NCBI GenBank assembly: GCA_021847925.1
Contig: JAJZNI010000016.1
Location: 1-50,508 of the forward strand
From: a bacterium
GTDB taxonomy: Bacteria > Chloroflexota > Dormibacteria > Aeolococcales > Aeolococcaceae
DNA: 50,508 bases
Direction of reading: 5' to 3'
In this document: piece by piece, positions 22,494 through 47,426 of the stretch
How positions within the stretch are numbered: position 1 is the first letter of the stretch
Layout: every line of letters starts with the position of its first letter
Translations under genes and position numbers: made by a program
The notes under the pieces: model-generated
What the model was told of the DNA's origin: nothing
Database searches by the model: none
Seen by the model: the letters and a program-made list of their open reading frames with translations, nothing else

Positions 22494-23276
22494 TCACCAG
22501 CGATACCGGTCGATCGCCATGAGCCCCGCGGTCTTGGCCCCGTCGATCGGGATCGCCGCACCGGTCACGAATGACGCCTCGTCGGACACCAGGTACATCA
22601 CGAGGCGCGCCACCTCCCCCGGTTCCCCGATGCGCCGCGCCGGGCAGACCGCGTGGGCACGGCGCCGGCCCTCGTCCTGACCACCCGTCGCGTCCCATTC
22701 GTCCCAGGTCATCTGGGTGGCGATGGGCCCCGGACAGATCGCGTTAACGCGCAGTCCCTGATCAGCGTATCCGAGCGCCAGCGAGCGGGTCAGGCTGACC
22801 ACGGCCGCCTTGGACGCAGCGTAGCCGACGCTCCCCGCCACCCCCACGAGCCCCGCCATCGAGGCGTTGTTCACGATCACGCCGCGAGACCTCAGCAGGT
22901 GCGGGAGGGCGTGCTTGCAGCACAGCCACGTGCCCTTCACGTTGGTGTCGAAGAGGAGATCCCAGTCATCCTCCCGCGGTCCGTCGAGCCCCTCGGCCAC
23001 CTCGACGCCGCTGTTGTTGAAGAGGATGTCGATCCTCCCGAGCTCGCCGGCCACCCTCTGCATCAGAGCCGCGACCGCGCCCGGGTCGGTGACGTCCGTC
23101 GCGGCGAAGATCGCGCGGGCCCCGCCCTCGCCGAGGGCCCGAGCCATGGCCTCGCCCCGCTCCCGGGAGCGGCCCGCGATGACGACCGAGGCTCCCGCTC
23201 CGGCGAGGAGCTCGGCGGTCGCCGCTCCGATGCCGCTCGCCCCTCCTGTGACCACCGCGACCCGTCCGGCGAGCAT
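22494..23276 (-). CDS. Short-chain dehydrogenase/reductase (SDR)
   Basis: VTGGASGIGAATA, NNSG, YAASKAAV. Start shares one base with the upstream stop (TGATG). Confidence 0.9.
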   Translation of the reverse strand: MLAGRVAVVTGGASGIGAATAELLAGAGASVVIAGRSRERGEAMARALGEGGARAIFAATDVTDPGAVAALMQRVAGELGRIDILFNNSGVEVAEGLDGPREDDWDLLFDTNVKGTWLCCKHALPHLLRSRGVIVNNASMAGLVGVAGSVGYAASKAAVVSLTRSLALGYADQGLRVNAICPGPIATQMTWDEWDATGGQDEGRRRAHAVCPARRIGEPGEVARLVMYLVSDEASFVTGAAIPIDGAKTAGLMAIDRYRW

Positions 23277-24373
23277 CAGGCCACCGCCGGAGCGCTGAGC
23301 AGGGCGCGCTCCTGATCCGGCCCCCAGATGTCACCGACGGTGAAGCCCTCGGGAAACGGGTCATCGGCGTCGACGACGTACTGCGTCATCGCGGTCACGA
23401 AGGCCTGGCCGCTCACCGCCGGCACCACCGCCGGGTGCCCGCCGACCGTCGTCGTGCCCACCACGCGACCGGTGAACACGGTGCCCATGATCCCCTCATG
23501 GACGAAGTCCTCTCCGATGCCCAGCCGGCCCTTGGCATGGAGGCATGCCATCCGGGCGCAGGTGCCGGTACCGCAGGGAGAGCGGTCGAGGATCCCCGTC
23601 CAGGTCTCGGGCCGGTCCCAATCCAGCGAGCCCGTCGAGACGACCACCGTGTTCTTGAGGGTGGCGTCGGGCCTGGTCGGCGGGGCGGAGAACTGGGTGA
23701 CGGTGACGCCGGAGATGTCCGGGTTCTCCGGGTGGACAGCCGGGAGCTGCTCGCGCGTCGCGGCCTTGATCATCTCGCCGAGCCGGACGATGTCATGGCC
23801 CTCGTCAGGGGTCAGCCTCAGGCCCAGCGCACGGGCCTCGGTGATGACGAACATCATCCCCCCGTAAGCGACGTCCACCGTCACCGTCCCCAGCTGGGGC
23901 ACCTCCACGTTGGCATCGAGGTGGAGGGCGAAGGCCGGGACGTTCTGGAAGGTGACGCGCCGGACGCTCTGGTCCTGAACCTCGGCGCGGATCCGCACCA
24001 GTCCGGCGGGGGCCTCCAGCGCGAACTCCGTGACGGGCTCCTGCATCGGCACCATCCCCGTCTCCAGCAGCACCGTGGCCACGCACATGGTGTTGCTCCC
24101 CGACATGGGCGGGTACTCCTGCGGCTCCATGATCACGTAGCCCGCCACCGCCTCGGGATCGCTGCTGGGCAGGATCAGGTTGCAGCAGCTCCCCGGGTAG
24201 CCACGCGGCTCTTTCAGCATGAGCCTGCGAAGCCCATCGCCATGCATCTCGAGATACCGCTTCTTCTCGAACATGGTCGTACCCTGGACGTTCAGGACGC
24301 CCCCCGTGATGACCCGGCCGTGGTTGCCCCCCGCGTGGGCATCCACCGCCGTGATGCATCGCGCCAGCTTCAT
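23276..24373 (-). CDS. Proline racemase superfamily protein, atypical Ser/Cys catalytic pair (PRS-A)
   Basis: DAHAGGN..RV, PMSGSNTMC in place of PMCGH, DRSPCGTG retained, C-terminal GDIW. GAGGAG lies 6 nt upstream of the ATG. Confidence 0.9.
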   Translation of the reverse strand: MKLARCITAVDAHAGGNHGRVITGGVLNVQGTTMFEKKRYLEMHGDGLRRLMLKEPRGYPGSCCNLILPSSDPEAVAGYVIMEPQEYPPMSGSNTMCVATVLLETGMVPMQEPVTEFALEAPAGLVRIRAEVQDQSVRRVTFQNVPAFALHLDANVEVPQLGTVTVDVAYGGMMFVITEARALGLRLTPDEGHDIVRLGEMIKAATREQLPAVHPENPDISGVTVTQFSAPPTRPDATLKNTVVVSTGSLDWDRPETWTGILDRSPCGTGTCARMACLHAKGRLGIGEDFVHEGIMGTVFTGRVVGTTTVGGHPAVVPAVSGQAFVTAMTQYVVDADDPFPEGFTVGDIWGPDQERALLSAPAVA

Positions 24374-24423
24374 CGCACGCTCCTCATCGCAGCCCTGGCT
24401 CCGGTTGACAACCCGTCGCCGGT

Positions 24424-24452
24424 ATCGTAGTCTTTGTCAGACAGTAAGTCAA
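24424..24452 (-). promoter_or_regulatory. Sigma-A-type promoter of the PRS-A operon with an operator-like TGTC/GACA element in the spacer
   Basis: Read on the minus strand: TTGACT (24447-24452), a 17-nt spacer tactgtctgacaaagac, then TACGAT (24424-24429), about 45 nt upstream of the PRS-A ATG. This is the most AT-rich patch of the divergent PRS-A/gntR gap. Confidence 0.45.
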
Positions 24453-24513
24453 ACAGCACCCCCACCGGGAACCCTAGACTCCCCTCATTCGAAGGTCGCC
24501 CCATCTGAAGCAA

Positions 24514-25227
24514 ATGGACACCCTGGCCAGTTTGTCGCCCGTATCGTCATCCACCCGCCGTGAGGAGGTGGTCCGAGCGCTGCGGCGCGCCATCCTGACC
24601 GGGGAGTTGCAGGCAGGCGATCACCTGCGCGAGGTCGCGCTCGCCGAGCGTCTGGGCGTCAGCCGGCCCACCGTGCGCGAGTCGATGCGCCAGCTGATCC
24701 AGGAGGGCCTGTTGACCCAGGAGCCCTACCGCGGGACGCGCGTGGTCGAGCCCCAGCCGGAGACGCTTCTGGAGATCGCGGATGTCAGGTCGGCGCTCGA
24801 GGCACTCGCAGCTCGCAAGGCCGCCACTCGCGGCGCGGCGCTCCTCGGCGAGCCCTTCGAAAAGGCTCTCGCGGACCTCGAGCAGGCGGCCACATCGGGC
24901 GATCAGTCGCTCATGCACGAGGCGCACGTGAACTTCCACGGTCTCGTCTACACGGCCTCCGGCAGCCAGCTGCTGGAGCAGGTGTGGAACCTGATACGCG
25001 CACGCATCGCCTTCGCGGTCGCGTGGGACCAGATGGCATACCCGGATTCCGCGTGGGGCGAACGCCAGCTTCAGCGCCATCGGGCTATCGTCACCGCGAT
25101 CATGGGAGGCGACGCGGCCAGCATCGACCACGTGGTGAACGAGCACATCGGCGCTGCGGCTCGGGACGTGGTGGACAGGGTCAACAAGGTGCAGGGCCGG
25201 CGAGATCGCCGGATCCGCTCGGCGTGA
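24514..25227 (+). CDS. GntR-family transcriptional regulator with FCD (FadR C-terminal) domain
   Basis: Winged HTH LREVALAERLGVSRPTVRESMRQL. All-helical C-domain with His residues (HVNFHGL, HRAIV). Confidence 0.9.
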   Translation: MDTLASLSPVSSSTRREEVVRALRRAILTGELQAGDHLREVALAERLGVSRPTVRESMRQLIQEGLLTQEPYRGTRVVEPQPETLLEIADVRSALEALAARKAATRGAALLGEPFEKALADLEQAATSGDQSLMHEAHVNFHGLVYTASGSQLLEQVWNLIRARIAFAVAWDQMAYPDSAWGERQLQRHRAIVTAIMGGDAASIDHVVNEHIGAAARDVVDRVNKVQGRRDRRIRSA

Positions 25228-25284
25228 CGAAGCTCGCTGAGAGCGTTCAGGGCGGGTGATGCAGAACAATGGAGGGCCAGTGGC

Positions 25285-26202
25285 ATGCGCAAGCGCGTGG
25301 AGTTGAGGGGGATTCTCCCCGCGATGGTGACGCCGTTCACAGGTGACGGTGCTCGACTCGACGAGGCGGCGCTGGCCGCGCTCAGCGATCGCCTCATCGC
25401 CGCGGGGGTGGGAGGCCTGATCCCGTGCGGAAGCACGGGTGAGTTCGTGTCGCTCAGCCATGCCGAGCGCCGCCGCGTGACCGAGGTCGTGGTGGAAGCG
25501 GCGCGCGGGCGCGTGCCCGTGGTTCCACAGACCGGGGCGCTGACCACCGCGGAGACCATTGAGCTCAGCCGTCACGCGGAGGCCGCCGGTGCCGCCGCCG
25601 TCATGATCGTCCCGCCCTACTACGAGGCCCCCCCGTGGGAGGACATCGTCCAGCACTACCGCGCCGTCTCGGCGGCGATCAGCATCCCGATCATGCTCTA
25701 TCACATCCCCTCAGCCCACGGGTACAAGCTCAGTGCGGCTCAGATCGGCGAGTTGGCTGAGGTTGATGGCGTCGACTTCATCAAGGACAGCAGCGCAGAC
25801 CTCGTGCAGCTGACTGAGCTTCTGCAGCGCTACGGTGACCGGATCCAGGTGTTCAACGGTTGGGATACGCTCACCTTTTACGGCTTCGCCGCCGGCACTC
25901 CCGCATCGGTCTGGGGTGCGGCGAACTTCATCCCCGATCTCTGCGTCGAGCTGTACGACACCGTCTACCGTCGCGGTGACCTGGAGGCCGGCCGCGAGGT
26001 CTGGCAGCGGGTGTGGCCGATCTGCCGCTACCTCGAGGAGCAGGCCTACGCGGCGCGGGTCAAGGGCGGCTGCGAGCTGATCGGGCACCCGGTGGGCCCG
26101 CCGCGCCTCCCCCTGCGCGCGGTGGCCTCCACGGACCAGGCGCGTCTCGCGGAGCTGCTCCGCCGGGCCGAGGTATCCATGCCCGCCGCCGTGGCCAGCT
26201 GA
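25285..26202 (+). CDS. DHDPS/N-acetylneuraminate-lyase family Schiff-base lyase (candidate pyrroline-4-hydroxy-2-carboxylate deaminase or 2-keto-3-deoxy-acid aldolase)
   Basis: ILPAMVTPF, GSTGEF, YHIP, catalytic Lys in FIKDSS. Confidence 0.9.
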   Translation: MRKRVELRGILPAMVTPFTGDGARLDEAALAALSDRLIAAGVGGLIPCGSTGEFVSLSHAERRRVTEVVVEAARGRVPVVPQTGALTTAETIELSRHAEAAGAAAVMIVPPYYEAPPWEDIVQHYRAVSAAISIPIMLYHIPSAHGYKLSAAQIGELAEVDGVDFIKDSSADLVQLTELLQRYGDRIQVFNGWDTLTFYGFAAGTPASVWGAANFIPDLCVELYDTVYRRGDLEAGREVWQRVWPICRYLEEQAYAARVKGGCELIGHPVGPPRLPLRAVASTDQARLAELLRRAEVSMPAAVAS

Positions 26203-26221
26203 CCCGCTCGCGGATACGAGA

Positions 26222-27946
26222 GTGAACGGACCGGTTTCGTCGGAGCTGGGCTCCGAATACTGGCGCGGCGCCGAAGCCGCTGTTCGGCGCACGATCTACC
26301 GGGGCACCGGCTTGGGCGACGACATCGCCGATCGGCCTCACATCGGTATCGTCAACGCGTACACGGATGCCTCGCCCGCGTACACGCACCTGCGCGGCCT
26401 CGCCGATGCTGTCAAGACCGGGGTATGGGCTGCCGGCGGAATTCCCTTCGAGTTCGGCACCTTCGCCACCTGCGGCAACATCGGCCTTGGCAGCGAGACG
26501 CTCAAGTACGAGCTCGTCATTCGCGATGCCCTGGCCGGGTCCATCGAGATCATGGCGAGCGTCCACCACTTCGCGGGGCTGGTCCTTCTGGCCTCGACGG
26601 ACAGCGTGATCCCAGGGCACATCCTCGGCGCGCTCCGCCTCAACCGCCCCACCCTCTTTGTCACCGGCGGTCCGATGCTCAGCGGGCACTGGCGCGGGCG
26701 GTCCGTCACCGCCATGCACGTCAACGAGGCCGTCTTCGGCGGTCTGCCCTCGGGAGCGATCACTCCAGATGAGCTGAAGGGGCTGGAGGACTCCGCCTGT
26801 CCCACGGCGGGAGCCTGCCCCGTCATGGGCACCGCCAACACCATGCAGATCCTCACCGAGCCCCTGGGGCTGGCTCTGCCGGCCACCGCCACCATACCCG
26901 CGGTGATGGTGGACAAGGTGCGTGCCGCGCACGTCTCCGGCCGGCGCATCGTGGACCTCGTCCGGCAGGGATGTCGCGTGGGGGACGTCCTCGACAGCCG
27001 GGCTCTGCGCAACGCGCTCATCGTCGACCTCGCCATCGGCGGATCGACCAACGCCGTGCTCCACCTGCTCAGCTTCGCCAGAGAGCTGGGGCTTCCCCTC
27101 ACCCTGGACGATTTTGACGAGCTGTCCCGGGTCATCCCCTGCCTGTCCGGTGTGCTACCCAACGGGCCGCACACCGTCGATCAGTTCCACCAGGCTGGAG
27201 GCGTCCCCCAACTGATGAAGCACCTCGGTGACCTCCTGGATGGAGACGCCGTCTCCGCTGATGGGCGCCCATGGCGGACCGTGCTCGAGCGTGTCGAGGA
27301 CCGTCCCTCGTCGGTGATCGCGACCCGCGAGAAGCCCCGCTTCGCGGACGGAGGTCTCTCCGTCCTGCGCGGGAACCTCGCGCCCTCGGGAGCCATCATC
27401 CGCCAGAGCGCCGTGCCCTCCGAGATGCAACGGCACACCGGTCCGGCCATCTGCTTCGACAGTGACAGGGACGCCTACGAGGCCGTCATCGGCGGCCGGG
27501 TGCGCCGGGGCTCGGTGGTGGTCGTGCGCTACCAGGGTCCGCGCGGTGCGCCGGGGATGGTCGAGGTCATGCTCACCTCCGACGCCCTCACCAGCACGGG
27601 GCGCAACCGCGACACCGCGCTCATCACCGACGGACGCTTCAGCGGATTCAATCACGGTCCCATCGTCGGTCACATCGACCCGGAGGCCGCGGTGGGCGGG
27701 CCGATCGCCCTCGTCGAGGATGGCGACACCGTCGAGATCGACATCCAGAACCGCCGCTTGGAGCTGCACGTCGAGGCTCGTGAGCTCGAGCGCCGCCGCG
27801 CCTCGTGGCGTCCACCCGAGCGATTCCAGCGCATCGGGCGAGGCATCCTCGGTCTCTATGCGATGACGGCGCTTCCCGCGAGCGAGGGGGCCGCGATGCA
27901 GCCGTGGACCGAGGCCAGCCACGAGAGGGAGCCGGCCGCCGTCTAG
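26222..27946 (+). CDS. IlvD/Edd family dehydratase
   Basis: 574 aa. Fe-S ligand region CPTAGACPVMGTANTMQ and C-terminal ITDGRFSG. GTG start. Confidence 0.9.
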   Translation: MNGPVSSELGSEYWRGAEAAVRRTIYRGTGLGDDIADRPHIGIVNAYTDASPAYTHLRGLADAVKTGVWAAGGIPFEFGTFATCGNIGLGSETLKYELVIRDALAGSIEIMASVHHFAGLVLLASTDSVIPGHILGALRLNRPTLFVTGGPMLSGHWRGRSVTAMHVNEAVFGGLPSGAITPDELKGLEDSACPTAGACPVMGTANTMQILTEPLGLALPATATIPAVMVDKVRAAHVSGRRIVDLVRQGCRVGDVLDSRALRNALIVDLAIGGSTNAVLHLLSFARELGLPLTLDDFDELSRVIPCLSGVLPNGPHTVDQFHQAGGVPQLMKHLGDLLDGDAVSADGRPWRTVLERVEDRPSSVIATREKPRFADGGLSVLRGNLAPSGAIIRQSAVPSEMQRHTGPAICFDSDRDAYEAVIGGRVRRGSVVVVRYQGPRGAPGMVEVMLTSDALTSTGRNRDTALITDGRFSGFNHGPIVGHIDPEAAVGGPIALVEDGDTVEIDIQNRRLELHVEARELERRRASWRPPERFQRIGRGILGLYAMTALPASEGAAMQPWTEASHEREPAAV

Positions 27947-27971
27947 CGATGGAGTCGCCAGCGCGCCACAC

Positions 27972-29033
27972 GTGCCTCGGGTGCAAGGCTCGGTGAGCGC
28001 CCCGCCCGTCAAGGTGCTGCTGGCGATCCGGGTCGACCCGCACCAGGTCGCCCGGATCGCCGCGGTCAGCCCCCGGCTGCTGGTCACCTACCGGCCCGAG
28101 CTGCTGCCCGCCGGGGGGCTCACGGGGGCGGCCCCGGCCCGTGACCCGGCGGACGGGGTGACGAGCATGGGGGGCGCCTCGGCGTGGAGGGATCTGCTGG
28201 CCGACGCCGAGATCATGCTCGGCTTCGATTGGGAGGAGCCGGGGAACCTCCTGCGGCGGGCGCCCCGACTGCGCTGGGTCCAGGCCGACAGCGCGGGAAT
28301 CGGCGAGTTCGTCGCCGCCCATGGTCTCGTGGACGACCGCCTGCAGTTGACCACCGCATCCGGCGTCCACGGCCAGCCCATCTCCGAGTACGTCCTCGCC
28401 GGGATGCTCCACTTCGCCAAGCGCTTTCCCGACCTGGCGGAGTGGAAGGCGGCCCGTGAGTGGCGGCCGTACACCCCCGTGGAGCTGGCCGGCTCCGAGG
28501 TCCTGATCATCGGTCTGGGGGCCATCGGACGCGCCGTCGCGCGGCTCTGCGCCGCAGTGGGGATGAGGGTGACCGGGCTGCGCCGAACCGGCGGACCGCC
28601 ACCCCCCGGGGTGTCCCACATCCTCGGCCATGCCGAGCTCGACGAGCGCCTGCCGGACTTCTCCTTCGTGGTGCTGGCCGCTCCTCTGACGCCGTGGACC
28701 CATCATCTCCTCGACAGGCCTCGCATCGAGCGCCTGCGCCGAGGCGCGGTGGTGATCAACGTCGGGCGAGGGGCGCTCATCGACGAGGAGGCGCTGGTGG
28801 CGGCCCTGGCTGGCGGTGGCCTCGGAGGCGCGGTGCTGGATGTCTTCGAGATCGAGCCCCTGCCGGCTGCCAGCCCCCTGTGGAGCCTGTCCAACGTCGT
28901 CATCACCGCGCACTCGTGCGGGGCGGTCACCGAGGAGCCCGACCGCATCGTCGATCTCTTCATCGACAACCTCGGCAGGTATCTCTCCGGGCAAGCGCTC
29001 AGGAACCTCTACCAGGCGGACCGAGGCTACTGA
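27972..29033 (+). CDS. D-isomer-specific 2-hydroxyacid dehydrogenase (NAD-binding)
   Basis: IIGLGAIGRAVARL, NVGRGALIDEEAL, ITAHSCG. Start uncertain among three GTGs at 27972, 27981 and 27993. Confidence 0.9.
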   Translation: MPRVQGSVSAPPVKVLLAIRVDPHQVARIAAVSPRLLVTYRPELLPAGGLTGAAPARDPADGVTSMGGASAWRDLLADAEIMLGFDWEEPGNLLRRAPRLRWVQADSAGIGEFVAAHGLVDDRLQLTTASGVHGQPISEYVLAGMLHFAKRFPDLAEWKAAREWRPYTPVELAGSEVLIIGLGAIGRAVARLCAAVGMRVTGLRRTGGPPPPGVSHILGHAELDERLPDFSFVVLAAPLTPWTHHLLDRPRIERLRRGAVVINVGRGALIDEEALVAALAGGGLGGAVLDVFEIEPLPAASPLWSLSNVVITAHSCGAVTEEPDRIVDLFIDNLGRYLSGQALRNLYQADRGY

Positions 29034-30485: not shown

Positions 30486-30508
30486 GTTCTCCGGCGCCTC
30501 CCTCGGTC

Positions 30509-32008: not shown

Positions 32009-32041
32009 CCTGCTGCTTGGTCGCTTTCCCCGGCCTTGCGG

Positions 32042-33734: not shown

Positions 33735-33745
33735 GTTCCGGCGGC

Positions 33746-39123: not shown

Positions 39124-39136
39124 CAGCGCCTATCCA

Positions 39137-40098: not shown

Positions 40099-41106
40099 TC
40101 AGGCCACCAGGAATCCATGCCGCATGGGATCGTCAGGATCGAGGGCGAAGGTGCTCTCTCCCGTGATGAAGGCTGATCCCGTCACCTCCACCCTCACCGC
40201 GGGCAGGTCCCCCACCCGCGCCTTCTCGACGGCACGGGCACGGAAGAGCGCCCCGGTGATGCTCTCGTGCACGAACTCCTCCCCCATCTCCAGCTCCCCC
40301 CTGGCTACGAGGGTCGCCACCTTGGCGCAGGTGCCGGTCCCGCACGGCGACCGATCCGCCCCACCCGGTCGGATTATGACGAGGATCCGAGCGTCGGCGC
40401 CGTCAGCCACCGGGGGGCCGAAGTACTGGATGTGAGTGAGGCCTCGGATGTCGGGGAGGGTCGGGTGCGCCACATCCACGGCAGCATCGAAGGCGGGGCG
40501 CAGCAGCTTGGCGGTTCCGATTGCCTCGGCGGCGTGCTCGATGTCGAGTGTGAGCCCGACCTGGGCCGCCTCGGTGATCGCATAGAAGTTGCCGCCGTAG
40601 GCGATGTCGGCGCGCACGCGCCCGTGGTGCGGGAGGTCGATCACGACGTCTCGGTGGAGGAGAAAGGAGGGAGCGTTCACGAAGCTGACCTCCTGGGCCC
40701 GGCCGTCACACACCTTGACCCGCGCCTCGACGAGACCGGCCGGCGTGTCCAACCGGATCTCCGTGTGGGGCTCCCTCACCGTCACCGCGCCGGTCTCGAC
40801 CAGGACCGTGCACAGGCCTATGGTGTCGTGCCCGCACATCGGGAGGTACCCGCTCGTCTCTATAAAGAGGACACCGACGTCGGCGCGGGGATCGCAGGGC
40901 GCGGTGAGGATGCAGCCGGACATGACGCTGTGGCCACGCGGCTCGAACATGAGTGCGGTGCGCACCCAGTCCAGCCGGCGCTGGAGATCGAGCATCTTCT
41001 CCAGCATCGTGCCCCCCTCCAGGGGTGGCACCCCCGAGAGCACGGTCCGGGTTGGGTTGCCGCCCGTGTGGCTCTCAATGGTGCGAAAGACGTGGTCAGC
41101 TCGCAT
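40099..41106 (-). CDS. Proline racemase superfamily protein, canonical Cys/Cys pair (4-hydroxyproline 2-epimerase or proline racemase; PRS-C)
   Basis: ESHTGGNPTR, PMCGHDTIG, DRSPCGTGTCAK. 335 aa. Confidence 0.9.
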   Translation of the reverse strand: MRADHVFRTIESHTGGNPTRTVLSGVPPLEGGTMLEKMLDLQRRLDWVRTALMFEPRGHSVMSGCILTAPCDPRADVGVLFIETSGYLPMCGHDTIGLCTVLVETGAVTVREPHTEIRLDTPAGLVEARVKVCDGRAQEVSFVNAPSFLLHRDVVIDLPHHGRVRADIAYGGNFYAITEAAQVGLTLDIEHAAEAIGTAKLLRPAFDAAVDVAHPTLPDIRGLTHIQYFGPPVADGADARILVIIRPGGADRSPCGTGTCAKVATLVARGELEMGEEFVHESITGALFRARAVEKARVGDLPAVRVEVTGSAFITGESTFALDPDDPMRHGFLVA

Positions 41107-41301: not shown

Positions 41302-41326
41302 CTTGTCCGTCTGACAGACTGACAAG
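41302..41326. promoter_or_regulatory. 25-bp near-perfect palindrome, candidate GntR-family operator
   Basis: CTTGTCCGTCTGACAGACTGACAAG: 11 of 12 arm positions pair around centre 41314. It lies in the divergent gap between PRS-C and the ALDH gene, immediately upstream of a TAGGAT -10-like hexamer (41331-41336). Confidence 0.5.
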
Positions 41327-41449: not shown

Positions 41450-42937
41450 ATGAGCACCAGCACCTACCTCGAACCGCTCGGGAACATGATCGGAGGCGAG
41501 TGGCGGCCGGCTCGGAGCGGCGAGACGCTCCCGGTGGAGGATCCGGCCACCGGTCGGCCGTTCTCCCAGATCCCGGCGAGCGGCGCGGCCGACATAGATG
41601 ACGCGATCGCCTCGGCTCGCTCCACGCTGCGGTCCGGCAGCTGGTCGCGCCTCCAGCCCAGCGAGCGGGGGCGCATCATGTGGCAGCTCGCCTCCCTGAT
41701 CCGACGGGACGGCGAGGCGCTCGCCCACGCGGAGACCCGCGACTCGGGCAAGCCGATCCGCGAGGCTCGCGAGGACATCGCCGGGACCGCGGACATCTTC
41801 GAGTACTACGCGGGTGCCGCCAGCAAGCTGACGGGACAATCCCATCCCCTGCCCAGTGCCCAGCTGGGCATGGTCATGCGCTTCCCCATCGGGGTCGTCG
41901 GGACGATCACCCCCTGGAACTTCCCCATCTACGTGGCTGCATGGAAGGTCGCTCCGGCGCTCGCGTGCGGAAACTCCGTGATCCTCAAACCGTCCGAGCT
42001 GGCGAGCCTCACCTGCCTCGGTCTGGGCGGGCTCGCCCTCGAGGCCGGCATGCCCGCAGGGGCCCTCAACGTGGTCTCGGGCACGGGCGGCGACGCCGGT
42101 GCCCCGCTCGCCGGCCACCCCGACGTCGACCTCCTCGCCTTCACCGGGGGTGTGGTCACCGGCCGCAAGGTGATGAGCTCGAGGGCCCAACTGGTCCGAC
42201 CCGTGCAGATGGAGCTGGGTGGCAAGTCCCCGAACATCGTGTTCGACGACGCGGACTTCGACCGGGCGGTCAGGGGGGCGGCGTTCGGGATCTTCTTCGC
42301 GCAGGGTGAGAACTGCAATGCCGGCAGCCGGGTGCTGGTCCAGGACACCATCTACGAGCGCTTCGTGGAGGGGCTTGCCGGCATGGCCCGGAGCATAAGG
42401 GTGCTCCCACCGACCGACGAGCGCTGCCAGATGGGTGCGCTGATCTCACGTGCGCACCTGGAAAAGGTCGCCGGGTACGTCGAGACGGGGGTCAGGGAGG
42501 GGGCCAGGCTGGTGACGGGAGGTCGTCGTCTCGATGACGGTGCCCTGCAGGGCGGCCACTTCTACGCACCCACGGTGCTTGCCGACGTCAGGCCACACCA
42601 CCGCGTCTTCACGGAGGAGATCTTCGGACCCGTCGTCGTCGTGACCCCCTTCCATGACGAGGAGGAGGCGATCCAGTTGGCGAACGCGACCGAGTACGGG
42701 CTGGCGGCCGGCGTATGGACCAGCAACGTCAGCCGCGCGCTGCGGTGCGTTCAGGAGATCGATTCCGGCTACGTCTGGGTGAACACCTTCAACTACACGC
42801 CCGTCGAGGCCCCCTTCGGGGGAGTGAAGGGTTCTGGGTTCGGCCGCGATTGCGGGATGCAGGCTCTCGACACCTACACGACGTGGAAGACGGTGGCCTG
42901 GGCCACCGCTCCCTTCACGAATTGGTATGAGAGCTGA
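41450..42937 (+). CDS. NAD(P)-dependent aldehyde dehydrogenase (candidate 2-ketoglutarate semialdehyde or P5C dehydrogenase)
   Basis: FTGGVVTGRKV, ELGGKSP, GENCNAGSR, EEIFGPV. GGAGGAG lies 9 nt upstream of the ATG. Confidence 0.9.
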   Translation: MSTSTYLEPLGNMIGGEWRPARSGETLPVEDPATGRPFSQIPASGAADIDDAIASARSTLRSGSWSRLQPSERGRIMWQLASLIRRDGEALAHAETRDSGKPIREAREDIAGTADIFEYYAGAASKLTGQSHPLPSAQLGMVMRFPIGVVGTITPWNFPIYVAAWKVAPALACGNSVILKPSELASLTCLGLGGLALEAGMPAGALNVVSGTGGDAGAPLAGHPDVDLLAFTGGVVTGRKVMSSRAQLVRPVQMELGGKSPNIVFDDADFDRAVRGAAFGIFFAQGENCNAGSRVLVQDTIYERFVEGLAGMARSIRVLPPTDERCQMGALISRAHLEKVAGYVETGVREGARLVTGGRRLDDGALQGGHFYAPTVLADVRPHHRVFTEEIFGPVVVVTPFHDEEEAIQLANATEYGLAAGVWTSNVSRALRCVQEIDSGYVWVNTFNYTPVEAPFGGVKGSGFGRDCGMQALDTYTTWKTVAWATAPFTNWYES

Positions 42938-43742
42938 TCGCAGGATCATCCTCAAAAAGGCCCGGGAAGTCGTGGACCAGTCCGCGTGCCCCCAGCACCA
43001 GACGCGCCGCCCTGAGCGTGGGCCCGACCAGCGGCTCGGTCGTGTACTGCTCGTAGCGGATGGTCAGCAGTTCCCCGGGCCGCGAGAAGAGCACCTCCTG
43101 ATGATCGTAGATGCTGGGCAGGCGGAGGCTGTGGATGCGAACCGAGCCGACCCGCGCCCCACGCGACTCGGGCAGGCCGAAGCGGGTGTGGTCGATCCCC
43201 GGAGGAGGGCCCCCGACCCGTTCAAGACGTTCCGCGGTCTCGATGGAGGTGCCCGACGGCGAGTCGAGCTTCTCCGGCATGTGAGCCTCGATGATCTCCA
43301 CGTCACCCATGTAACGGCGCACGAGCTCGGCGCAGCGGAACATGAGGTGACCCGCCAGCGTCAGGTTGGGCGCCTTGAAAGCACCGACGCCGCGGCTGGC
43401 GGCGAGCCGGCCCAGCTCGGACACGTCCTCGGCCGACATCCCGGTCGTCCCCATCACGACGGCCATGCCGGCCTCTATGCCCGCCCGGCAGTGCTTGACC
43501 GCCACCTCGGGCGCGCTGAAGTCGATGAGCACCTGTCCCCCGGTGCCGCGCACCGCCTCCTCCACCTCGCTCTCCAAGCGGACACCGGTCTCGCGCATGC
43601 CGAGAACGACCCCCACGTCCTCGCCGGCCCGCTGGCGGCCAACCGCACCCACCAAGGCAAAGTCGGTGCTCCGCAGGATCGCCGGCACCATGGACCTGCC
43701 GACCCGGCCCGTGGCCCCCGTGAACACGACTCTAATGGGCAT
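42915..43742 (-). CDS. DapB-like (4-hydroxy-tetrahydrodipicolinate reductase family) oxidoreductase
   Basis: N-terminal VVFTGATGRVGRSM. Substrate-domain motif IIEAHMPEKLDSPSGTS versus the canonical E(A/S)HHxxKxDAPSGTA. The 3' end overlaps the convergent ALDH gene by 23 nt. Confidence 0.85.
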   Translation of the reverse strand: MPIRVVFTGATGRVGRSMVPAILRSTDFALVGAVGRQRAGEDVGVVLGMRETGVRLESEVEEAVRGTGGQVLIDFSAPEVAVKHCRAGIEAGMAVVMGTTGMSAEDVSELGRLAASRGVGAFKAPNLTLAGHLMFRCAELVRRYMGDVEIIEAHMPEKLDSPSGTSIETAERLERVGGPPPGIDHTRFGLPESRGARVGSVRIHSLRLPSIYDHQEVLFSRPGELLTIRYEQYTTEPLVGPTLRAARLVLGARGLVHDFPGLFEDDPAISSHTNS

Positions 43743-43771
43743 CAGACACTCTCCTCACAGGTGGTGATCGC

Positions 43772-44515
43772 ATGGACACTCTGAGCGGCCGGCGCGCCCT
43801 CGTCACAGGGGGCGGCGGCGCGATCGGACGGGTTGCGCTCGGCACCCTCCTCGACCTCGACGTCGACGAGGTGGTGGTCACCGGGCGGCGACGGGAGCCG
43901 CTCGACGAGGTCGAGCGGCTGGCACCCGGTCGCGTGCGCGGACATCAGATGGATGTGGCCGAGGACGCAGCTTGGACGCGCCTCCTGACGGAGGTGCAAT
44001 CGGACGGCCGCGGCATCGACGTCCTCGTCGCCTGCGCCGGCGTGGCGCGCCGGGCTCCGTACCTGGAGGGCCGGCTCGAGGACTGGGAGGAGATGTGGCG
44101 GACCAACGTGCTCGGCACCCTCCTCGCCGCGCGCCACCTCGTCCCCGGGATGTCCGAGCGAGGCTGGGGACGGATCGTCCTGATCTCCTCGGCGGCGGCC
44201 CACATCGGGCTTCCCGGCCGGGCCGTCTACGGCGCCACAAAGGCGGCCATCGAGGCTCTCGCGCGCTCCCTGGCCGCCGAGTTCGGCGGCTGTGGGATCC
44301 TGGTCAACACCATCGCCCCCGGCATGTACCTCACCTCGATGACGGAGGCTTTTCTGGAGGCCAACCCCGCCACCGCCGCCGCGATTCGAGACAGGATCCC
44401 GGTGCACCGCTTCGGCCAGGTCGGGGAGCTGGCCGAAGCCTTCCGGCTCCTCGTGACCACCACGTACATGCAGGGGGCGTCGCTGCGCGTGGACGGCGGC
44501 TGGACAGCGACCTGA
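43772..44515 (+). CDS. Short-chain dehydrogenase/reductase (SDR)
   Basis: VTGGGGAIGRV, YGATKAAI. Confidence 0.9.
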   Translation: MDTLSGRRALVTGGGGAIGRVALGTLLDLDVDEVVVTGRRREPLDEVERLAPGRVRGHQMDVAEDAAWTRLLTEVQSDGRGIDVLVACAGVARRAPYLEGRLEDWEEMWRTNVLGTLLAARHLVPGMSERGWGRIVLISSAAAHIGLPGRAVYGATKAAIEALARSLAAEFGGCGILVNTIAPGMYLTSMTEAFLEANPATAAAIRDRIPVHRFGQVGELAEAFRLLVTTTYMQGASLRVDGGWTAT

Positions 44516-44551
44516 CGTGGCAGCGGCCATCCCTCGCGCCTCACCCTGCAT

Positions 44552-44573
44552 GATAATCTGACAGTATGACAAT
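44552..44573 (+). promoter_or_regulatory. -10-like GATAAT plus operator-like TCTGACAGTATGACAAT overlapping the start codon of the HcnC-like gene (possible leaderless promoter)
   Basis: GATAAT at 44552-44557, then 8 nt to the ATG at 44566, with no SD. 14 of 17 positions of 44557-44573 match 41310-41326. Confidence 0.4.
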
Positions 44574-45768
44574 CTCTCGCGATCATGGCGGCACGACGAT
44601 CGGGGTCTGCGACGCGATCGTGGTGGGCGCCGGGATCGTCGGAGCCTCGTGCGCCCACGCGCTGGCCAAGGCCGGGCTCGCCGTTCGGATCGTGGAGAGA
44701 GACGCGCCGGCTCGGGGAACCTCCGGCGCATGCGAGGGGAATCTCGTCCTCTGGGACCGAACGTCAGACCCCGACCTCGCGCTCACTCGCGTGAGCCATC
44801 GCCGCTGGGCTGAGCTCGCCGAGGAGCTGAGCGCCGGCGTGGGCATCGACATCGAGTACGCGCGCAAGGGGAGCCTGATGGTCATCCCCGAGAGCGGTGG
44901 GATCGACGGTGCACGCCGGCAGTGCGACTGGCTGGGTGGACAGGGCGTCCGCTACGAGTGGCTGGACGCAGCGGGAGTGCGCGAGGCCGAGCCGTGGCTC
45001 AAGGGGGCCGTTGACGGAGCCGCCTACTTCCCGGACGACGCTCAGATCGAGCCGCGCCTCGCAACGTGGGCCCAGGTGCGGGCCGCGCAACGGTGCGGAG
45101 CCACCCTGCACGCCCACCAACCGGTGCTGGACGTCCAATCCAGCGCCACAGGCGTGCGCGTGACCACCGGCCTGGGGGTGCTGTCGGCCGACTGGCTGGT
45201 CGTGGCGGCAGGGGTGTGGAGCCCGGAGGTCGTCCGCTCCCTCCATGTCGACGTGCCGGTCCGCCCGCGCAAGGGTCAGATCGCCATCATCGCCGGCTCA
45301 CCCGTCCAGGTGATCCACAAGGTCATGGAGGCATCGTACGTGCAGACCGTCGCCAGTGACGACGAGCAGCTCCAGGTCGCCAACGTCGTCGAGTCCACGC
45401 GCAGCGGCTCCATCCTCCTGGGCAGCAGCCGTGAGGTGACGGTGCCCTCGGATCGTGGCGTCGAGCTCTCCGTTCTGAGCAGAATCGTGGCGCGGGCGCT
45501 GGACTTCTTCCCCGACCTGGCGTCGGCACAGGTGATCCGGAGCTACGCGGGCTTGCGCCCGATGACCCCCGACCATCTGCCGCTCATCGGCCCGCTGCGT
45601 GAGCACCCACGGGTCATCCTCGCCACCGGTCACGAGGGCGGCGGGGTCATGGGCGCCGCGGCGACCGCGGACATGGTCGCTGCCCTGATCATGGGTGCTC
45701 CGACCCCGGTACCCCCGGAACCCTACCTCCCCACGCGGACGCTGAACCCCGCGGGCAGCCACGGCTGA
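44566..45768 (+). CDS. FAD-dependent oxidoreductase, HcnC / opine oxidase B / D-hydroxyproline dehydrogenase beta-like subunit
   Basis: DAIVVGAGIVGASCAH. DAO-family length (400 aa). Followed by the 2Fe-2S and HcnB-like subunits. Confidence 0.9.
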   Translation: MTISRDHGGTTIGVCDAIVVGAGIVGASCAHALAKAGLAVRIVERDAPARGTSGACEGNLVLWDRTSDPDLALTRVSHRRWAELAEELSAGVGIDIEYARKGSLMVIPESGGIDGARRQCDWLGGQGVRYEWLDAAGVREAEPWLKGAVDGAAYFPDDAQIEPRLATWAQVRAAQRCGATLHAHQPVLDVQSSATGVRVTTGLGVLSADWLVVAAGVWSPEVVRSLHVDVPVRPRKGQIAIIAGSPVQVIHKVMEASYVQTVASDDEQLQVANVVESTRSGSILLGSSREVTVPSDRGVELSVLSRIVARALDFFPDLASAQVIRSYAGLRPMTPDHLPLIGPLREHPRVILATGHEGGGVMGAAATADMVAALIMGAPTPVPPEPYLPTRTLNPAGSHG

Positions 45769-45772
45769 CGCC

Positions 45773-46057
45773 ATGGAACGCCTGGAACATGTCCGCCGCG
45801 GCCGGCAGATCACCATCGAGGTGGACGGCGAGCGGGTCGATTGCTGGGAGGGGGAGACGGTCGCCACCGCGATGCTCACGCGGCATCTCCGCCTCAGCCG
45901 GGATGCGTCCCGACCGCGGTCGGTCTTCTGCGCTATCGGCGTCTGCTTCGAGTGTGCCGCGGAGATCGACGGCACCGCAGGCGTTCGCACCTGCATGACG
46001 CCGGCGGTCGCGGGCATGCGCGTGCGGACCACGTCAGGAGGGTCCGCCCGTGCCTGA
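45773..46057 (+). CDS. Small (2Fe-2S)-binding subunit, HcnA / opine oxidase small-subunit-like
   Basis: ITIEVDGERVDCWEGETVATAM...FCAIGVCFECAAEIDG...RTCMT. Confidence 0.85.
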   Translation: MERLEHVRRGRQITIEVDGERVDCWEGETVATAMLTRHLRLSRDASRPRSVFCAIGVCFECAAEIDGTAGVRTCMTPAVAGMRVRTTSGGSARA

Positions 46058-47426
46058 TCTGCTCATCGTCGGCGCCGGACCGGCCGGTCTGGCCGCCGCC
46101 ATCCAGGCGGGGGAGCTCGGCCTTGACACAGTGGTGGTCGACGAGAACACCACCGCCGGCGGCCAGTTCTATCGCCAGTATCCGGAGAGCTTCCAGGAGC
46201 CGGCATCCCCTCGCGATCCGCAGCGGGAGAGGGGCAGACAGGTCATCTCTCGCGCCCGTCGCGCCGCCGAATTCCGACTCGGCGCCTCCGTCTGGGGCAT
46301 CGACGGACCGGATGTGTGGCTGGATCAGGGCGGCGAACCCGACCTGGTGCGGAGCCACTGCACGCTGCTCGCCACCGGAGCGCATGATCGCCCCACACCT
46401 TTTCCGGGCTGGACGCTCCCGGGTGTCATCACCGCAGGTGCGGCGCAGACCCTGGTCAAGGGCCAGGCGGTGAAGCCCGGCTCCCGCGCCGTCGTCGCCG
46501 GCTCCGGCCCCTTTCTGCTGACGGTGGCCGCGCATCTGGTGGCGGCCGGGGTGCGGGTTGTCGAGGTGGTGGAGGCCGCCACCCTCCACGAGGGCCTCCG
46601 TCTCCTGCCTCGGACGCTCCCCTATCCCGCGAGATACGTGGAGCTGTCCCGCTACCTCACACCGCTGCTGCGGCACGGAGCCCGGTTCACGAGAGGCTGC
46701 GTCGTCGCCGCAGCCGAGGGGCGCGACCACGTGGAGCGCGTTGAGTTGGAACCGCTGCGGGGTGGACCGCGCAGGACGCGCAGCGTCGGAGTGGACCTGC
46801 TCTGCGTCGGATATGGCTTCTCCGCACCCACGGACCTGGCGCGCCTGGCCGGCTGCTCGCTGCGCTGGGACACCGGCATGGCGCAGCCAGTCCCTCGGCA
46901 CGACAGGTGGCAGGCGACGTCCGTTCCCGGGCTGCTGGTGGCGGGGGAAGCGTGCGGCCTGGGCGGAGCGTCGGTCTCAGCCCTGGAGGGCCAGATCGCC
47001 GCGATCGGGGCTGCTCGGCAGTTGGCTCGCCTCTCCGACCCCGAGGCCGCGCGGCTCGCCCGGCCGCTCTGGGCTCGCCTCCGGCGGGCTCGCGGCTTCG
47101 CCCGCGTGCTCACCGACGCGTTCCCTCACCGCCTCCAGCTCGCTGAGCTCCCCACCGACGACACCATCGTCTGCCGGTGCCAGAACGTACGTTGGGGCAC
47201 GGTGAGAAAGGCGGTCGAGGAGGGGGCCCATGACCTCAACGAGGTGAAGACCAGCACGCGATGTGGCATGGGCTGGTGTCAGGGACGCATCTGCGGTGCG
47301 GCGCTTCCCGACCTGATCACATCGCGTGTCGATCCCGGCTTCGACCACAGTGCGGTGTTCACAGCCCGGCCACCGCTCCGGCCGGTACGGGCATCGACGC
47401 TGGCCCGGGCACTCCCCCGCCGCTGA
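46050..47426 (+). CDS. FAD/NAD(P)-binding oxidoreductase, HcnB / opine oxidase A-like subunit with C-terminal BFD-like Fe-S motif
   Basis: LLIVGAGPAGLAAA. C-terminal CRCQNV....C.MGWCQGRIC. The GTG start overlaps the upstream stop by 8 nt and is preceded by AGGAGGG. Confidence 0.9.
   Translation: MPDLLIVGAGPAGLAAAIQAGELGLDTVVVDENTTAGGQFYRQYPESFQEPASPRDPQRERGRQVISRARRAAEFRLGASVWGIDGPDVWLDQGGEPDLVRSHCTLLATGAHDRPTPFPGWTLPGVITAGAAQTLVKGQAVKPGSRAVVAGSGPFLLTVAAHLVAAGVRVVEVVEAATLHEGLRLLPRTLPYPARYVELSRYLTPLLRHGARFTRGCVVAAAEGRDHVERVELEPLRGGPRRTRSVGVDLLCVGYGFSAPTDLARLAGCSLRWDTGMAQPVPRHDRWQATSVPGLLVAGEACGLGGASVSALEGQIAAIGAARQLARLSDPEAARLARPLWARLRRARGFARVLTDAFPHRLQLAELPTDDTIVCRCQNVRWGTVRKAVEEGAHDLNEVKTSTRCGMGWCQGRICGAALPDLITSRVDPGFDHSAVFTARPPLRPVRASTLARALPRR

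Follow-up and report, generated by a model that had tools for sequence, protein, structure and literature searches.

The "L-hydroxyproline gene cluster" (LhpA-L) comprises 18 genes in Pseudomonas aeruginosa, including one for the uncharacterized LhpL, which resembles members of the proline-racemase superfamily (PRS) (Watanabe et al., 2016, PMC5144071). Composite clusters uniting the routes for trans-4-, trans-3- and cis-3-hydroxyproline (Hyp) have already been described (PMC5144071). In Streptomyces coelicolor, SCO6289-6293 encode DAO (beta), Fer2_4 (gamma) and Pyr_redox/BFD (alpha) proteins, a DHDPS-type deaminase and a PRS epimerase, and are repressed by the GntR/FCD regulator HypR and induced by L-Hyp (Kotowska et al., 2019, PMC6608401). 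The first three products (SCO6289-6291) have been identified with P. aeruginosa LhpB/F/E, and deletion of the epimerase gene, SCO6293, abolishes growth on L-Hyp (PMC6608401). Here, these systems are compared with a gene cluster on a 50,508-nucleotide stretch of bacterial DNA (contig JAJZNI010000016.1 of GenBank assembly GCA_021847925.1, analysed whole and called the window below), which we read, with a probability of about 0.62, as a composite catabolic island for free Hyp stereoisomers with HypR-like control. The island probably also serves D- and L-proline.

Like the LhpA-L clusters of P. aeruginosa (PA1252-1269), Sinorhizobium meliloti and Labrenzia aggregata (PMC5144071, citing Zhang et al., 2015, J Am Chem Soc 137:1388), the window brings together candidate genes for three Hyp routes, an ABC importer and a regulator, and has more than one PRS gene, as do clusters with LhpL; an enolase-superfamily gene is shared with the L. 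aggregata cluster, where it encodes the cis-3-Hyp dehydratase LhpJ (PMC5144071). It differs from them in having three PRS genes, two of which encode Ser/Cys proteins with a 12-residue insertion, and in an enolase-superfamily protein that is only 40% identical to PDB 4MGG. Genes for a DapB-like reductase, two SDRs and a flavin amine oxidase, all conserved partners, are extra, as is an insert of about 9 kb (26.2-35.1 kb) with aminotransferase, aldehyde dehydrogenase (ALDH), isomerase, reductase and IlvD genes. The host also differs, being a high-GC bacterium rather than one of the Proteobacteria; to judge by the closest locus and by named homologues of the aminotransferase AT_b, it probably belongs to the Chloroflexota. 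With the S. coelicolor HypR regulon (SCO6289-SCO6294), the window shares a GntR/FadR-subfamily FCD regulator, the genes for DAO (beta), Fer2_4 (gamma) and Pyr_redox plus Fer2_BFD (alpha) proteins in the same order, and a DHDPS-family and a Cys/Cys-type PRS protein, corresponding to the deaminase and epimerase (PMC6608401). The S. coelicolor operon, however, consists of five enzyme genes, none of them for 3-Hyp, and the gene for the semialdehyde dehydrogenase lies elsewhere, whereas the window genes make up at least three transcription units.

The island is an enlarged version of a known cluster type and not a new kind of system. The enolase-superfamily protein, the extra PRS proteins, the flavoenzyme and the GntR regulator are not unexplained, because all have direct precedents in described Hyp clusters, and few conserved enzymes are left without an assigned step. 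An earlier note on this DNA had counted the two Ser/Cys PRS proteins and the enolase-superfamily protein among the surplus. This no longer holds for the former, since a Ser/Cys 4-Hyp 2-epimerase with 3-Hyp activity has been characterized (PMC4113996), nor for the latter, which best matches the cis-3-Hyp dehydratase model and 4MGG and has LhpJ as a precedent (PMC5144071). It does hold for the DapB-like reductase and the SDRs, which are conserved and have no assigned step. The flavin amine oxidase is a further conserved enzyme of this kind.

Gene content and a proposed route for trans-4-hydroxyproline

The GC content of the window is 67-76%, and raw lists of its open reading frames (ORFs) are full of spurious frames. 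Genes were called by third-position GC, and their families were typed with Pfam and then NCBIfam (Table 1); NCBIfam names serve as leads only, nearly all scores being under the curated equivalog cutoffs. Contigs of the same species, with identical proteins, give gene calls that agree with this map and an identical gene order. Related loci (L numbers) were gathered with an alignment of enolase homologues against species-representative genomes, by look-ups of single homologues, and with an alignment of DapB-like proteins against metagenome contigs, and the window proteins were mapped onto them by tblastn. The metagenome scan gave no match with the DapB-like protein alone, and a three-sequence alignment was needed.

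All gene families named in the earlier note were found where it had placed them, and its three PRS genes, two Ser/Cys and one Cys/Cys, were borne out by PF05544 and by alignment. Its description of nearly every gene as belonging to an imino-acid family goes too far: the Hyi-like, TSR-like, D-2-hydroxyacid dehydrogenase, IlvD-like and class-III aminotransferase genes are not of Hyp families. The cluster does lie at 22494-47426, where it had been delimited, but runs further left, to about 15.6 kb, and so takes in the genes for the amine oxidase, the ornithine cyclodeaminase (OCD) homologue, a second DAO protein and glycerate kinase.

A full trans-4-Hyp route, as had been proposed, can be put together from the genes present by family and synteny. 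The polar-amino-acid ABC system would import the imino acids. PRS3, with its Cys/Cys dyad, would then epimerize trans-4-L-Hyp to cis-4-D-Hyp, which the beta-gamma-alpha flavoenzyme would oxidize to pyrroline-4-hydroxy-2-carboxylate; the DHDPS-family enzyme would deaminate this compound to alpha-ketoglutarate semialdehyde, and ALDH2 would oxidize the semialdehyde to 2-oxoglutarate. These four steps are assigned by family and synteny, those of the second route discussed below being inferred.

The flavoenzyme is proposed to be a D-hydroxyproline dehydrogenase. Its three adjacent genes encode DAO, Fer2_4 and Pyr_redox_2 proteins, the last with a BFD-like [2Fe-2S] domain, which is the gene set of a heteromeric D-Hyp dehydrogenase, and the likeness to SCO6289-6291 is one of domain set and gene order. 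For PRS3, the proposed role is that of a 4-hydroxyproline 2-epimerase (4HypE) and possibly also that of a proline racemase (ProR). PRS enzymes racemize proline, epimerize 4-Hyp at C2 or dehydrate trans-3-Hyp, and most members are concluded to catalyze only these reactions (Zhao et al., 2014, PMC4113996). PRS3 narrowly misses the 4HypE model NF010578 (360.1 bits, cutoff 376; PRS1 256.8, PRS2 274.9) and reaches 377 bits against the ProR model (cutoff 556), and its nearest PDB entries are true proline racemases and archaeal bifunctional ProR/HypE enzymes. Although sequence cannot tell the two activities apart, context favours the 4-Hyp epimerase: the neighbours by which Zhao et al. recognize a 4HypE, namely D-Hyp dehydrogenase, DHDPS-family deaminase and ALDH genes, are in the island and syntenic in relatives. 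A call by the proposed ProR/HypE specificity residues was dropped, since their exchange does not switch specificity (PMC4364671).

The DHDPS-family protein falls under every NCBIfam cutoff, and no specific deaminase model exists. Its orthologues, with 60-62% identity, are found in L011, L037, L040, L041 and L048, which places the gene among the most widely kept of the cluster. In the FIKDSS/MVKEST stretch, one Lys is matched by a Lys in the alignment with PDB 3NA8 and would be the Schiff-base Lys. The protein has no characterized close relative; assignment as Lhp deaminase through the PDB was dropped, because the best structure, 3NA8, is the uncharacterized PA0223 and not Lhp deaminase. Alternatively, it may be a 2-keto-3-deoxy-pentonate dehydratase. 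ALDH2 is proposed to be an alpha-ketoglutarate-semialdehyde dehydrogenase, for which the models give 377-378 bits against cutoffs of 750-770. In L011 (66% identity), its gene keeps synteny with the DapB-like gene, and in L035 (85%) with both PRS3 and the DapB-like gene. The ABC importer is conserved between PRS3 and PRS2 in L011, L035 and L039.

Table 1. Features of the island and its flanks, in window coordinates.
Feature	Position	Strand	Evidence or remark
Glycerate kinase	15639-16793	-	PF02595 E = 7e-108; TIGR00045 314 bits vs cutoff 168
Second FAD-dependent DAO oxidoreductase (SoxB/ThiO-like)	16888-18036	-	PF01266 E = 2e-75
OCD/mu-crystallin protein	18033-19022	-	PF02423 E = 4e-50
Flavin amine oxidase	19274-20674	-	PF01593 E = 6e-49
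Glutamate dehydrogenase paralogue	20702-21979	-	ELFV_dehydrog domains
SDR1	22494-23276	-	adh_short_C2 E = 2e-60; co-transcribed with PRS1
PRS1	23276-24373	-	PF05544 E = 3e-120, 401.6 bits; Ser/Cys dyad
PRS1/GntR divergent promoter gap	24374-24513		Candidate operator TTTGTCAGACAG at 24433-24444
GntR/FCD (FadR-subfamily) regulator	24514-25227	+	GntR and FCD domains (Pfam)
DHDPS-family enzyme	25285-26202	+	PF00701 E = 3e-63, 213.6 bits
IlvD/EDD dehydratase, dihydroxy-acid-dehydratase type	26222-27946	+	TIGR00110 567 bits vs cutoff 618
D-2-hydroxyacid dehydrogenase	27981-29033	+	PF02826 E = 4e-48
Class-III aminotransferase	29115-30485	-	Accessory block; Pfam/NCBIfam
ALDH1	30509-31999	-	Accessory block; Pfam/NCBIfam
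Tartronate-semialdehyde-reductase-like (TSR-like) gene	32042-32965	-	Accessory block; Pfam/NCBIfam
Hydroxypyruvate/2-oxo-tetronate-isomerase-like (Hyi-like) gene	32943-33734	-	Accessory block; Pfam/NCBIfam
Class-III aminotransferase AT_b	33746-35083	-	Accessory block; Pfam/NCBIfam
Enolase-superfamily (MLE subgroup) gene	35196-36338	-	NF043002 319.3 bits
PRS2	36335-37438	-	PF05544 E = 5e-110, 368.1 bits; Ser/Cys dyad
ABC importer ATPase, polar-amino-acid type	37450-38313	-	Pfam/NCBIfam
ABC importer permease	38356-39123	-	Pfam/NCBIfam
ABC importer binding protein SBP_bac_3	39137-40018	-	Pfam/NCBIfam
PRS3	40099-41106	-	PF05544 E = 5e-120, 401.0 bits; Cys/Cys; first gene of long leftward operon
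Candidate operator palindrome	41303-41325		PRS3/ALDH2 divergent gap; 23 bp, near-perfect, TTGTCCGTCTGACAGACTGACAA
ALDH2	41450-42937	+	PF00171 E = 6e-169
DapB-like NAD(P)H reductase	42915-43742	-	TIGR00036 175.6 bits vs cutoff 122
SDR2	43772-44515	+	adh_short_C2 E = 1e-45
Three-subunit flavoenzyme, beta	44566-45768	+	DAO (Pfam)
Three-subunit flavoenzyme, gamma	45773-46057	+	Fer2_4 (Pfam)
Three-subunit flavoenzyme, alpha	46050-47426	+	Pyr_redox_2 and Fer2_BFD (Pfam)
EamA-family transporter	about 47464-48483	+	Pfam; downstream of dehydrogenase genes
SDR3	48471-49247	+	Pfam; start codon estimated; downstream of dehydrogenase genes

Ser/Cys proteins, the enolase-superfamily protein and a possible imine reduction

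All three PRS proteins match PF05544 over its full length, well above the gathering score of 27 bits, and have both catalytic positions. In the alignment, the dyad motifs are PMSGSNT ... DRSPCGTG in PRS1 and PRS2 and PMCGHDT ... DRSPCGTG in PRS3. PRS1 and PRS2 keep the Asn of the SGSN motif, which positions the catalytic Ser (PMC4113996), and carry a 12-residue insertion directly before DRSPCGTG. The models for trans-3-Hyp dehydratase (t3HypD; cutoffs 550 and 540) are not reached by PRS1 (373.8 bits, its best NCBIfam match), PRS2 (314.6) or PRS3 (315.5). The PDB entries nearest to PRS1 and PRS2 are 4K8L, 1TM0 and 4K7G, of Ser/Thr type, the Ser/Cys 4LB0 being less close. The second dyad residue is Cys in all three window proteins, whereas the t3HypD structure 4K7G has DRSPTGTG and characterized trans-3-Hyp dehydratases have Thr there, with Cys/Thr or Ser/Thr dyads (PMC4113996).

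PRS1 and PRS2 thus share the catalytic-Ser SGSN motif with Zhao clusters 3 and 9 (4K7G, 4K8L, 4LB0) and are closest in sequence to the Ser/Thr cluster 3, with a Ser/Cys dyad as in the cluster-9 protein B9JQV3 (PMC4113996). They differ from both in joining a cluster-3-like sequence to a cluster-9-like dyad, with the insertion, and in scoring far under the equivalog cutoffs. B9JQV3 (PDB 4LB0) epimerizes 4-Hyp and, promiscuously, 3-Hyp, cluster 3 is a mixture of trans-3-Hyp dehydratases and 4-Hyp epimerases, and two adjacent PRS genes in a genome have been taken as composite pathways (PMC4113996). PRS1 is a candidate for either a hydroxyproline 2-epimerase or a trans-3-Hyp dehydratase. Since trans-3-Hyp dehydratases have Thr at the second position, an epimerase role appears at least as likely as a dehydratase role for PRS1 and PRS2.

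PRS2 orthologues (59-76% identity) lie directly upstream of the enolase-superfamily gene in L011, L035, L039 and L040, and in the window the PRS2 stop codon abuts the enolase start codon. The true start of the latter is at 36338 (MKVTSL...), not at the upstream TTG of the longer ORF. The cis-3-Hyp dehydratase model NF043002 is the best NCBIfam match of the product, under the cutoff of 500 bits (next family, 144), and 4MGG is its best PDB match (276 bits, 40% identity), followed by the hydroxyproline-betaine 2-epimerase group (4H2H, 4E8G). We take 4MGG to be the L. aggregata enzyme, whose gene, LhpJ, is reportedly flanked by PRS genes. Only two of the homologues listed exceed 80% identity. K165, D194, E219, D242 and K266 are invariant in 17 homologues and align with 4MGG; K165 and K266 correspond to the two catalytic Lys, and D194, E219 and D242 to the Mg2+ site of two Asp and one Glu, that mark a cis-3-Hyp dehydratase (PMC5144071). 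The protein is therefore described as an LhpJ-like cis-3-Hyp dehydratase candidate, a 40% identity not fixing specificity.

In the second route, this enzyme would dehydrate cis-3-L-Hyp to pyrroline-2-carboxylate, PRS1 and PRS2 would epimerize or dehydrate 3- and 4-Hyp isomers, and an imine reductase would convert pyrroline-2-carboxylate to L-proline. The OCD protein, the DapB-like protein or both could supply that last step, with OCD as the best candidate. Its family is one of the two known to provide the pyrroline-2-carboxylate reductase of 3-Hyp routes (PMC4113996). At 164.9, 163.0 and 125.3 bits, it falls short of the respective models NF005603, NF004793 and NF045512 (cutoffs 266, 322 and 400), so that it is a candidate at the family level. 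The missing 3-Hyp reductase step may thus lie just left of 22494-47426.

The DapB-like protein keeps the His...Lys pair and the PSGT loop of its family, with the second His replaced by Met (IIEAHMPEKLDSPSGT, compared with the DapB motif IIELHHNQKADAPSGT); its score above the TIGR00036 cutoff indicates membership of the DapB family only. A role in lysine biosynthesis is doubtful, because the gene is conservedly linked to SDR2, ALDH2 and the flavoenzyme: in L011, L035, L039, L047 and L048, it is accompanied by SDR2 and by one of two partners, ALDH2 or the three-subunit dehydrogenase. It is proposed to reduce a cyclic imino acid, which we infer to be pyrroline-2-carboxylate or a hydroxylated analogue. 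A single-phrase literature query found no relevant paper linking DapB (dihydrodipicolinate reductase) to pyrroline-2-carboxylate reductase or hydroxyproline metabolism.

The SDRs, the amine oxidase and the second DAO protein could plausibly invert C3 or C4 through oxo-prolines and oxidize further D- and L-isomers. SDR1 orthologues (66% identity) directly follow the enolase-superfamily gene in L011 and PRS1 in L040, and SDR2 always adjoins the DapB-like gene in relatives. Homologues of the flavin amine oxidase (37-50% identity) stand beside the cluster in L011, L040, L020, L022, L023 and L025, and in other lineages the gene is syntenic with enolase, DHDPS and GntR genes. The second DAO gene has a GTG start overlapping the OCD stop codon; its product shows 26% identity to the beta subunit of the flavoenzyme (DAO, 44566), stays under the cutoff of every NCBIfam match, and is a candidate D-imino or D-amino acid dehydrogenase. 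The same leftward run also has a gene for a small membrane protein and ends in the glycerate kinase gene, which is not beside the cluster in relatives and is an uncertain member of the island. The glutamate dehydrogenase at 20702, probably a passenger or concerned with nitrogen handling, has a second copy at 1139-2416 (+), 18 kb away on the opposite strand (71% identity between ORF translations).

Conserved core and candidate operator

The gene order of the island recurs in part in several relatives. L035, whose enolase-superfamily protein is 81% identical, has the window order of flavoenzyme, PRS3, ABC, PRS2, enolase, AT_b, isomerase, reductase and ALDH1, followed by a DDE transposase. L039 (76%) has DapB-like, PRS3, ABC, PRS2 and enolase genes, with nothing related beyond the last. 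In L040 (68%), PRS2-enolase-PRS1-SDR1 are contiguous, and DAO, amine oxidase, EamA and DHDPS genes and an AcnX fragment follow. The Chloroflexi metagenome-assembled genome locus L011 (65%) has PRS3-ABC-PRS2-enolase-SDR1 together with DAO, amine oxidase, DHDPS, IlvD, GntR, SDR2, DapB-like and ALDH2 genes. L047 and L048, found through their DapB-like proteins (56-59%), have DAO-Fer2-Pyr_redox-DapB-like-SDR2-GntR-DHDPS-ABC-IlvD, with no enolase gene and no PRS gene in 16.8 kb. The conserved core comprises PRS3-ABC-PRS2-enolase(-PRS1)-SDR1, the amine oxidase, DHDPS and GntR genes, SDR2-DapB-like-ALDH2, and the three-subunit dehydrogenase. The clustering is not due to chance, the PRS family being small and much of the gene order being found again in relatives with proteins 52-85% identical.

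The L040 cluster combines the enolase-type candidate with an AcnX swivel-domain gene (8795-9244), AcnX being the other, non-homologous type of cis-3-Hyp dehydratase. In L048, the PRS-less cluster spans 5019-16798 (it is also present in L047 and L049), with genes for an FGGY sugar kinase, a cupin and two proteins without a Pfam match upstream on the opposite strand; its substrate may be other than hydroxyproline.

The enolase-superfamily gene of the window is parted from PRS1-SDR1 by the stretch at 24.5-35.1 kb; in L040 the two adjoin each other, as they do in L011, where PRS1 is lacking. The window order is thus a lineage-specific rearrangement or accretion, with 26.2-35.1 kb as the accreted part that splits an ancestral PRS2-enolase-PRS1-SDR1 operon. 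This synteny reveals a mosaic, and the island can no longer be treated as the single unit proposed earlier: the core recurs across L011, L035, L039, L040 and L047-48, and the accessory block (29115-35083) only in the closest relatives.

The single GntR/FCD regulator is proposed to be a HypR-like repressor, by analogy with the precedents in S. coelicolor and S. meliloti (PMC6608401). It would bind TTGTCAG-type palindromes in both divergent gaps. The 50.5 kb contain TTGTCAGNC at two sites only, 24434 in the PRS1/GntR gap and 41317 in the PRS3/ALDH2 gap, the latter within the 23-bp palindrome, which overlaps a -35-like hexamer of the PRS3 operon. When the regions upstream of PRS3 in the window, L035, L039 and L011 are aligned, the palindrome is kept at the same place and the flanks diverge; in each of these three relatives, TTGTCAG occurs once in the locus, at this site. 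In L047 and L048, the DapB-like gene is closely preceded by tandem CTGACAA repeats. The window element, for which both divergent gaps have candidate TTGTCAGAC and palindrome sites, is similar to the FadR-subfamily pattern TKGT-N-ACMA (quoted in PMC6608401) and differs from the S. coelicolor HypR motif, CTNTGC(A/C)ATGTCAC. The earlier picture of one regulator is thus upheld, and the candidate operator shared by both gaps suggests common control.

The remaining genes of the window include those for two HtrA-like Trypsin_2-PDZ proteases, at 1-969 (+), cut by the window start, and at 11367-13229 (-), and for a P-type (E1-E2) ATPase with a C-terminal hemerythrin HHE domain at 8933-11425 (-). A formate-tetrahydrofolate ligase, a PALP enzyme and a hexapeptide transferase, the latter two of which may form a cysK/cysE-like pair, are encoded at 3716-7456 (-) and are unrelated to the island. 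The EamA gene to the right of the flavoenzyme genes is also in the L040 cluster. At the right edge, 49250-50470 (-) encodes a D-serine-dehydratase-like/alanine-racemase-N protein, weakly BhcC-like (138 bits, cutoff 690), with weak homologues (27-28% identity) after the DapB-like gene in L045 and L046; the gene may be part of the island or of a neighbouring D-hydroxy-amino-acid function. A beta-hydroxyaspartate cycle was rejected on this BhcC score and on that of a BhcD-like gene (92 bits, cutoff 500).

Alternative readings and the accessory block

Several observations weigh against a composite Hyp island. Specific activities are unproven, because nearly all NCBIfam equivalog cutoffs are missed (bits/cutoff: PRS1 374/550, PRS2 315/550, PRS3 360/376, enolase-superfamily protein 319/500, ALDH2 377/770, OCD 165/266), and there is no confident trans-3-Hyp dehydratase gene, because characterized ones carry Thr and not Cys. 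TGTCWGACA, TCTGACAG and the spaced palindrome are not commoner in the window than in shuffles, so that the case for the operator rests on position and cross-species conservation. No terminator or promoter is predicted between the accessory block and the enolase-superfamily gene; since four of the five block genes are also kept in L035, the block may be co-expressed and functionally tied to the core. In several Actinobacteria, a homologue of the enolase-superfamily protein is encoded with amine oxidase, ALDH and DHDPS genes and no PRS gene within 10 kb, company that a pure cis-3-Hyp dehydratase would not need.

The core can also be read as an undescribed "stereoisomer funnel" or oxidative route that takes all Hyp stereoisomers, or 3-Hyp only, to alpha-ketoglutarate semialdehyde. 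The two Ser/Cys PRS proteins with the insertion, the LhpJ-like enzyme, SDR1, the flavin amine oxidase and the DHDPS-family enzyme, with the DapB-like reductase and SDR2 next to the three-subunit dehydrogenase, would then amount to more than the three described Hyp routes taken together. Such a route would combine several C2-epimerases, D-imino-acid dehydrogenases, a new imine reductase of the DapB family and SDR inversion at C3 or C4 via oxo-prolines; we consider it less likely than not. In Actinobacteria, enolase homologues of 49-53% identity sit with ALDH, DHDPS and GntR genes, some of these loci having a Ser/Cys PRS gene (46-52% to PRS1) and others an amine oxidase gene and no PRS gene. If the funnel were real, the PRS-less clusters with amine oxidase, GntR, enolase, ALDH and DHDPS genes would be its minimal version, with the enolase-superfamily enzyme acting first. 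In Nocardia, Nocardioides and Cryptosporangium (L022, L023, L025 and L026), there is a recurrent operon of GntR, enolase homologue, ALDH and DHDPS genes with no PRS gene within 10 kb, preceded by a flavin amine oxidase gene in L022, L023 and L025 and lacking it in L026. It looks like a complete four-step pathway with the enolase-superfamily enzyme first.

The accessory genes could also form an integral lower pathway to glycerate and pyruvate, distinct from the alpha-ketoglutarate-semialdehyde route and running through transamination and oxidation by the aminotransferases and ALDH1, Hyi-like 2-keto/3-hydroxy isomerization, TSR-like reduction, IlvD-like dehydration and glycerate kinase. The genes share a strand and are separated by short gaps, AT_b and the enolase-superfamily gene have no predicted terminator between them, the order AT_b-Hyi-TSR-ALDH1 is kept in the 81% relative L035, and a glycerate kinase gene closes the leftward run; furthermore, DHDPS and GntR genes again have an IlvD-family gene as a neighbour in L011, L037, L041 and L048, and the L037 cluster has glycerate 2-kinase and enolase genes. 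Nevertheless, such a pathway is unlikely. The block is whole only in the same species, and neither L011, L039 and L040 nor any cluster further removed has it. The recurrent IlvD is arabinonate-dehydratase-like (770 bits, cutoff 882; 79% identity between L048 and L011, 58% in L041 and L037), the IlvD of the window is only 38% identical to it, and a semialdehyde dehydrogenase shared with a pentonate pathway explains its recurrence better. Pentonate and Hyp routes could meet at alpha-ketoglutarate semialdehyde, which would account for the nearby dehydratases of relatives and not for the window IlvD; a narrow literature query found no papers linking IlvD/EDD enzymes to hydroxyproline.

AT_b points the same way. 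Of 8,000 scored candidates, 7,988 are homologues at E <= 1e-60, and more than 100 listed database proteins are 80-84% identical, the few named ones mostly from Chloroflexota or "Candidatus Limnocylindria". The two contexts inspected (L042 and L043, 81-82% identity) are both unrelated to the Hyp cluster, one lying by an NMT1-type ABC system and the other by a GH63-like gene and a DHDPS gene. Because of these many homologues and unrelated contexts, AT_b is regarded as a conserved lineage gene that the Hyp genes adjoin or recruited in this species. JGI labels its homologues taurine--2-oxoglutarate transaminase. In L035, a DDE_5 transposase gene (16267-16935) directly follows ALDH1, in place of the second aminotransferase gene, which makes the block edge a point of rearrangement. 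The D-2-hydroxyacid dehydrogenase gene is not conserved in related clusters. For the isomerase-reductase pair, an L-threonate/erythronate pathway is unsupported, since among the called genes Pfam matched neither a DUF1537-type kinase nor a class-II aldolase. The stretch at 26.2-35.1 kb, in which the block is joined by the IlvD-like and D-2-hydroxyacid dehydrogenase genes, is probably a separate amine or hydroxy-acid module, and the surplus enzymes do not form the one block that had been supposed, the two aminotransferases, the isomerase, the reductase and ALDH1 being absent from most related clusters.

Flavin opine dehydrogenases share the three-subunit architecture of the window flavoenzyme. 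The core could act on some secondary amine or cyclic imino acid other than Hyp, for instance pipecolate, hydroxypipecolate or an N-carboxyalkyl amino acid of the opine type, with the flavoenzyme as an opine or imino-acid dehydrogenase and the DapB-like and SDR proteins processing its product. Nearly all equivalog cutoffs are missed, and L047 and L048 have flavoenzyme, DapB-like, SDR, GntR, DHDPS, ABC and IlvD genes with no PRS gene. However, in the window three PRS genes and an LhpJ-like enolase gene share these operons, most PRS members being limited to proline and Hyp reactions (PMC4113996), and domains and order match the S. coelicolor Hyp operon, in which an epimerase knockout abolishes growth on L-Hyp (PMC6608401). 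The proline-betaine and N-methylproline substrates considered earlier were rejected, as the called genes include no demethylase and no Rieske or other oxygenase. A substrate class other than Hyp is therefore quite improbable. That unrelated catabolic operons sharing neither regulation nor a class of substrates have come to lie together here by chance is very improbable despite the varying gene content in relatives, the transposase in L035, the interspersed housekeeping-like glutamate dehydrogenase and AT_b genes and the chance-level motif counts over the whole window, as core order is conserved at 52-85% protein identity in several lineages and the rare TTGTCAG lies in both divergent gaps and, as the sole copy per locus, upstream of PRS3 in three relatives.

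Read as a composite Hyp island, the cluster offers several targets for enzymology: a DapB-family reductase tightly linked to a D-Hyp dehydrogenase, a distinct Ser/Cys subgroup of the PRS, and an LhpJ-like clade. This clade is widespread in Actinobacteria and Chloroflexota, and its usual partners (ALDH, DHDPS and amine oxidase) are not those of a simple cis-3-Hyp dehydratase. Hydroxyproline, from collagen and from plant cell-wall glycoproteins, is a large source of carbon and nitrogen in soil. Known clusters for its catabolism are mainly from Proteobacteria, Bacilli and Streptomyces, and the island adds an uncultured high-GC lineage to those with the composite type.

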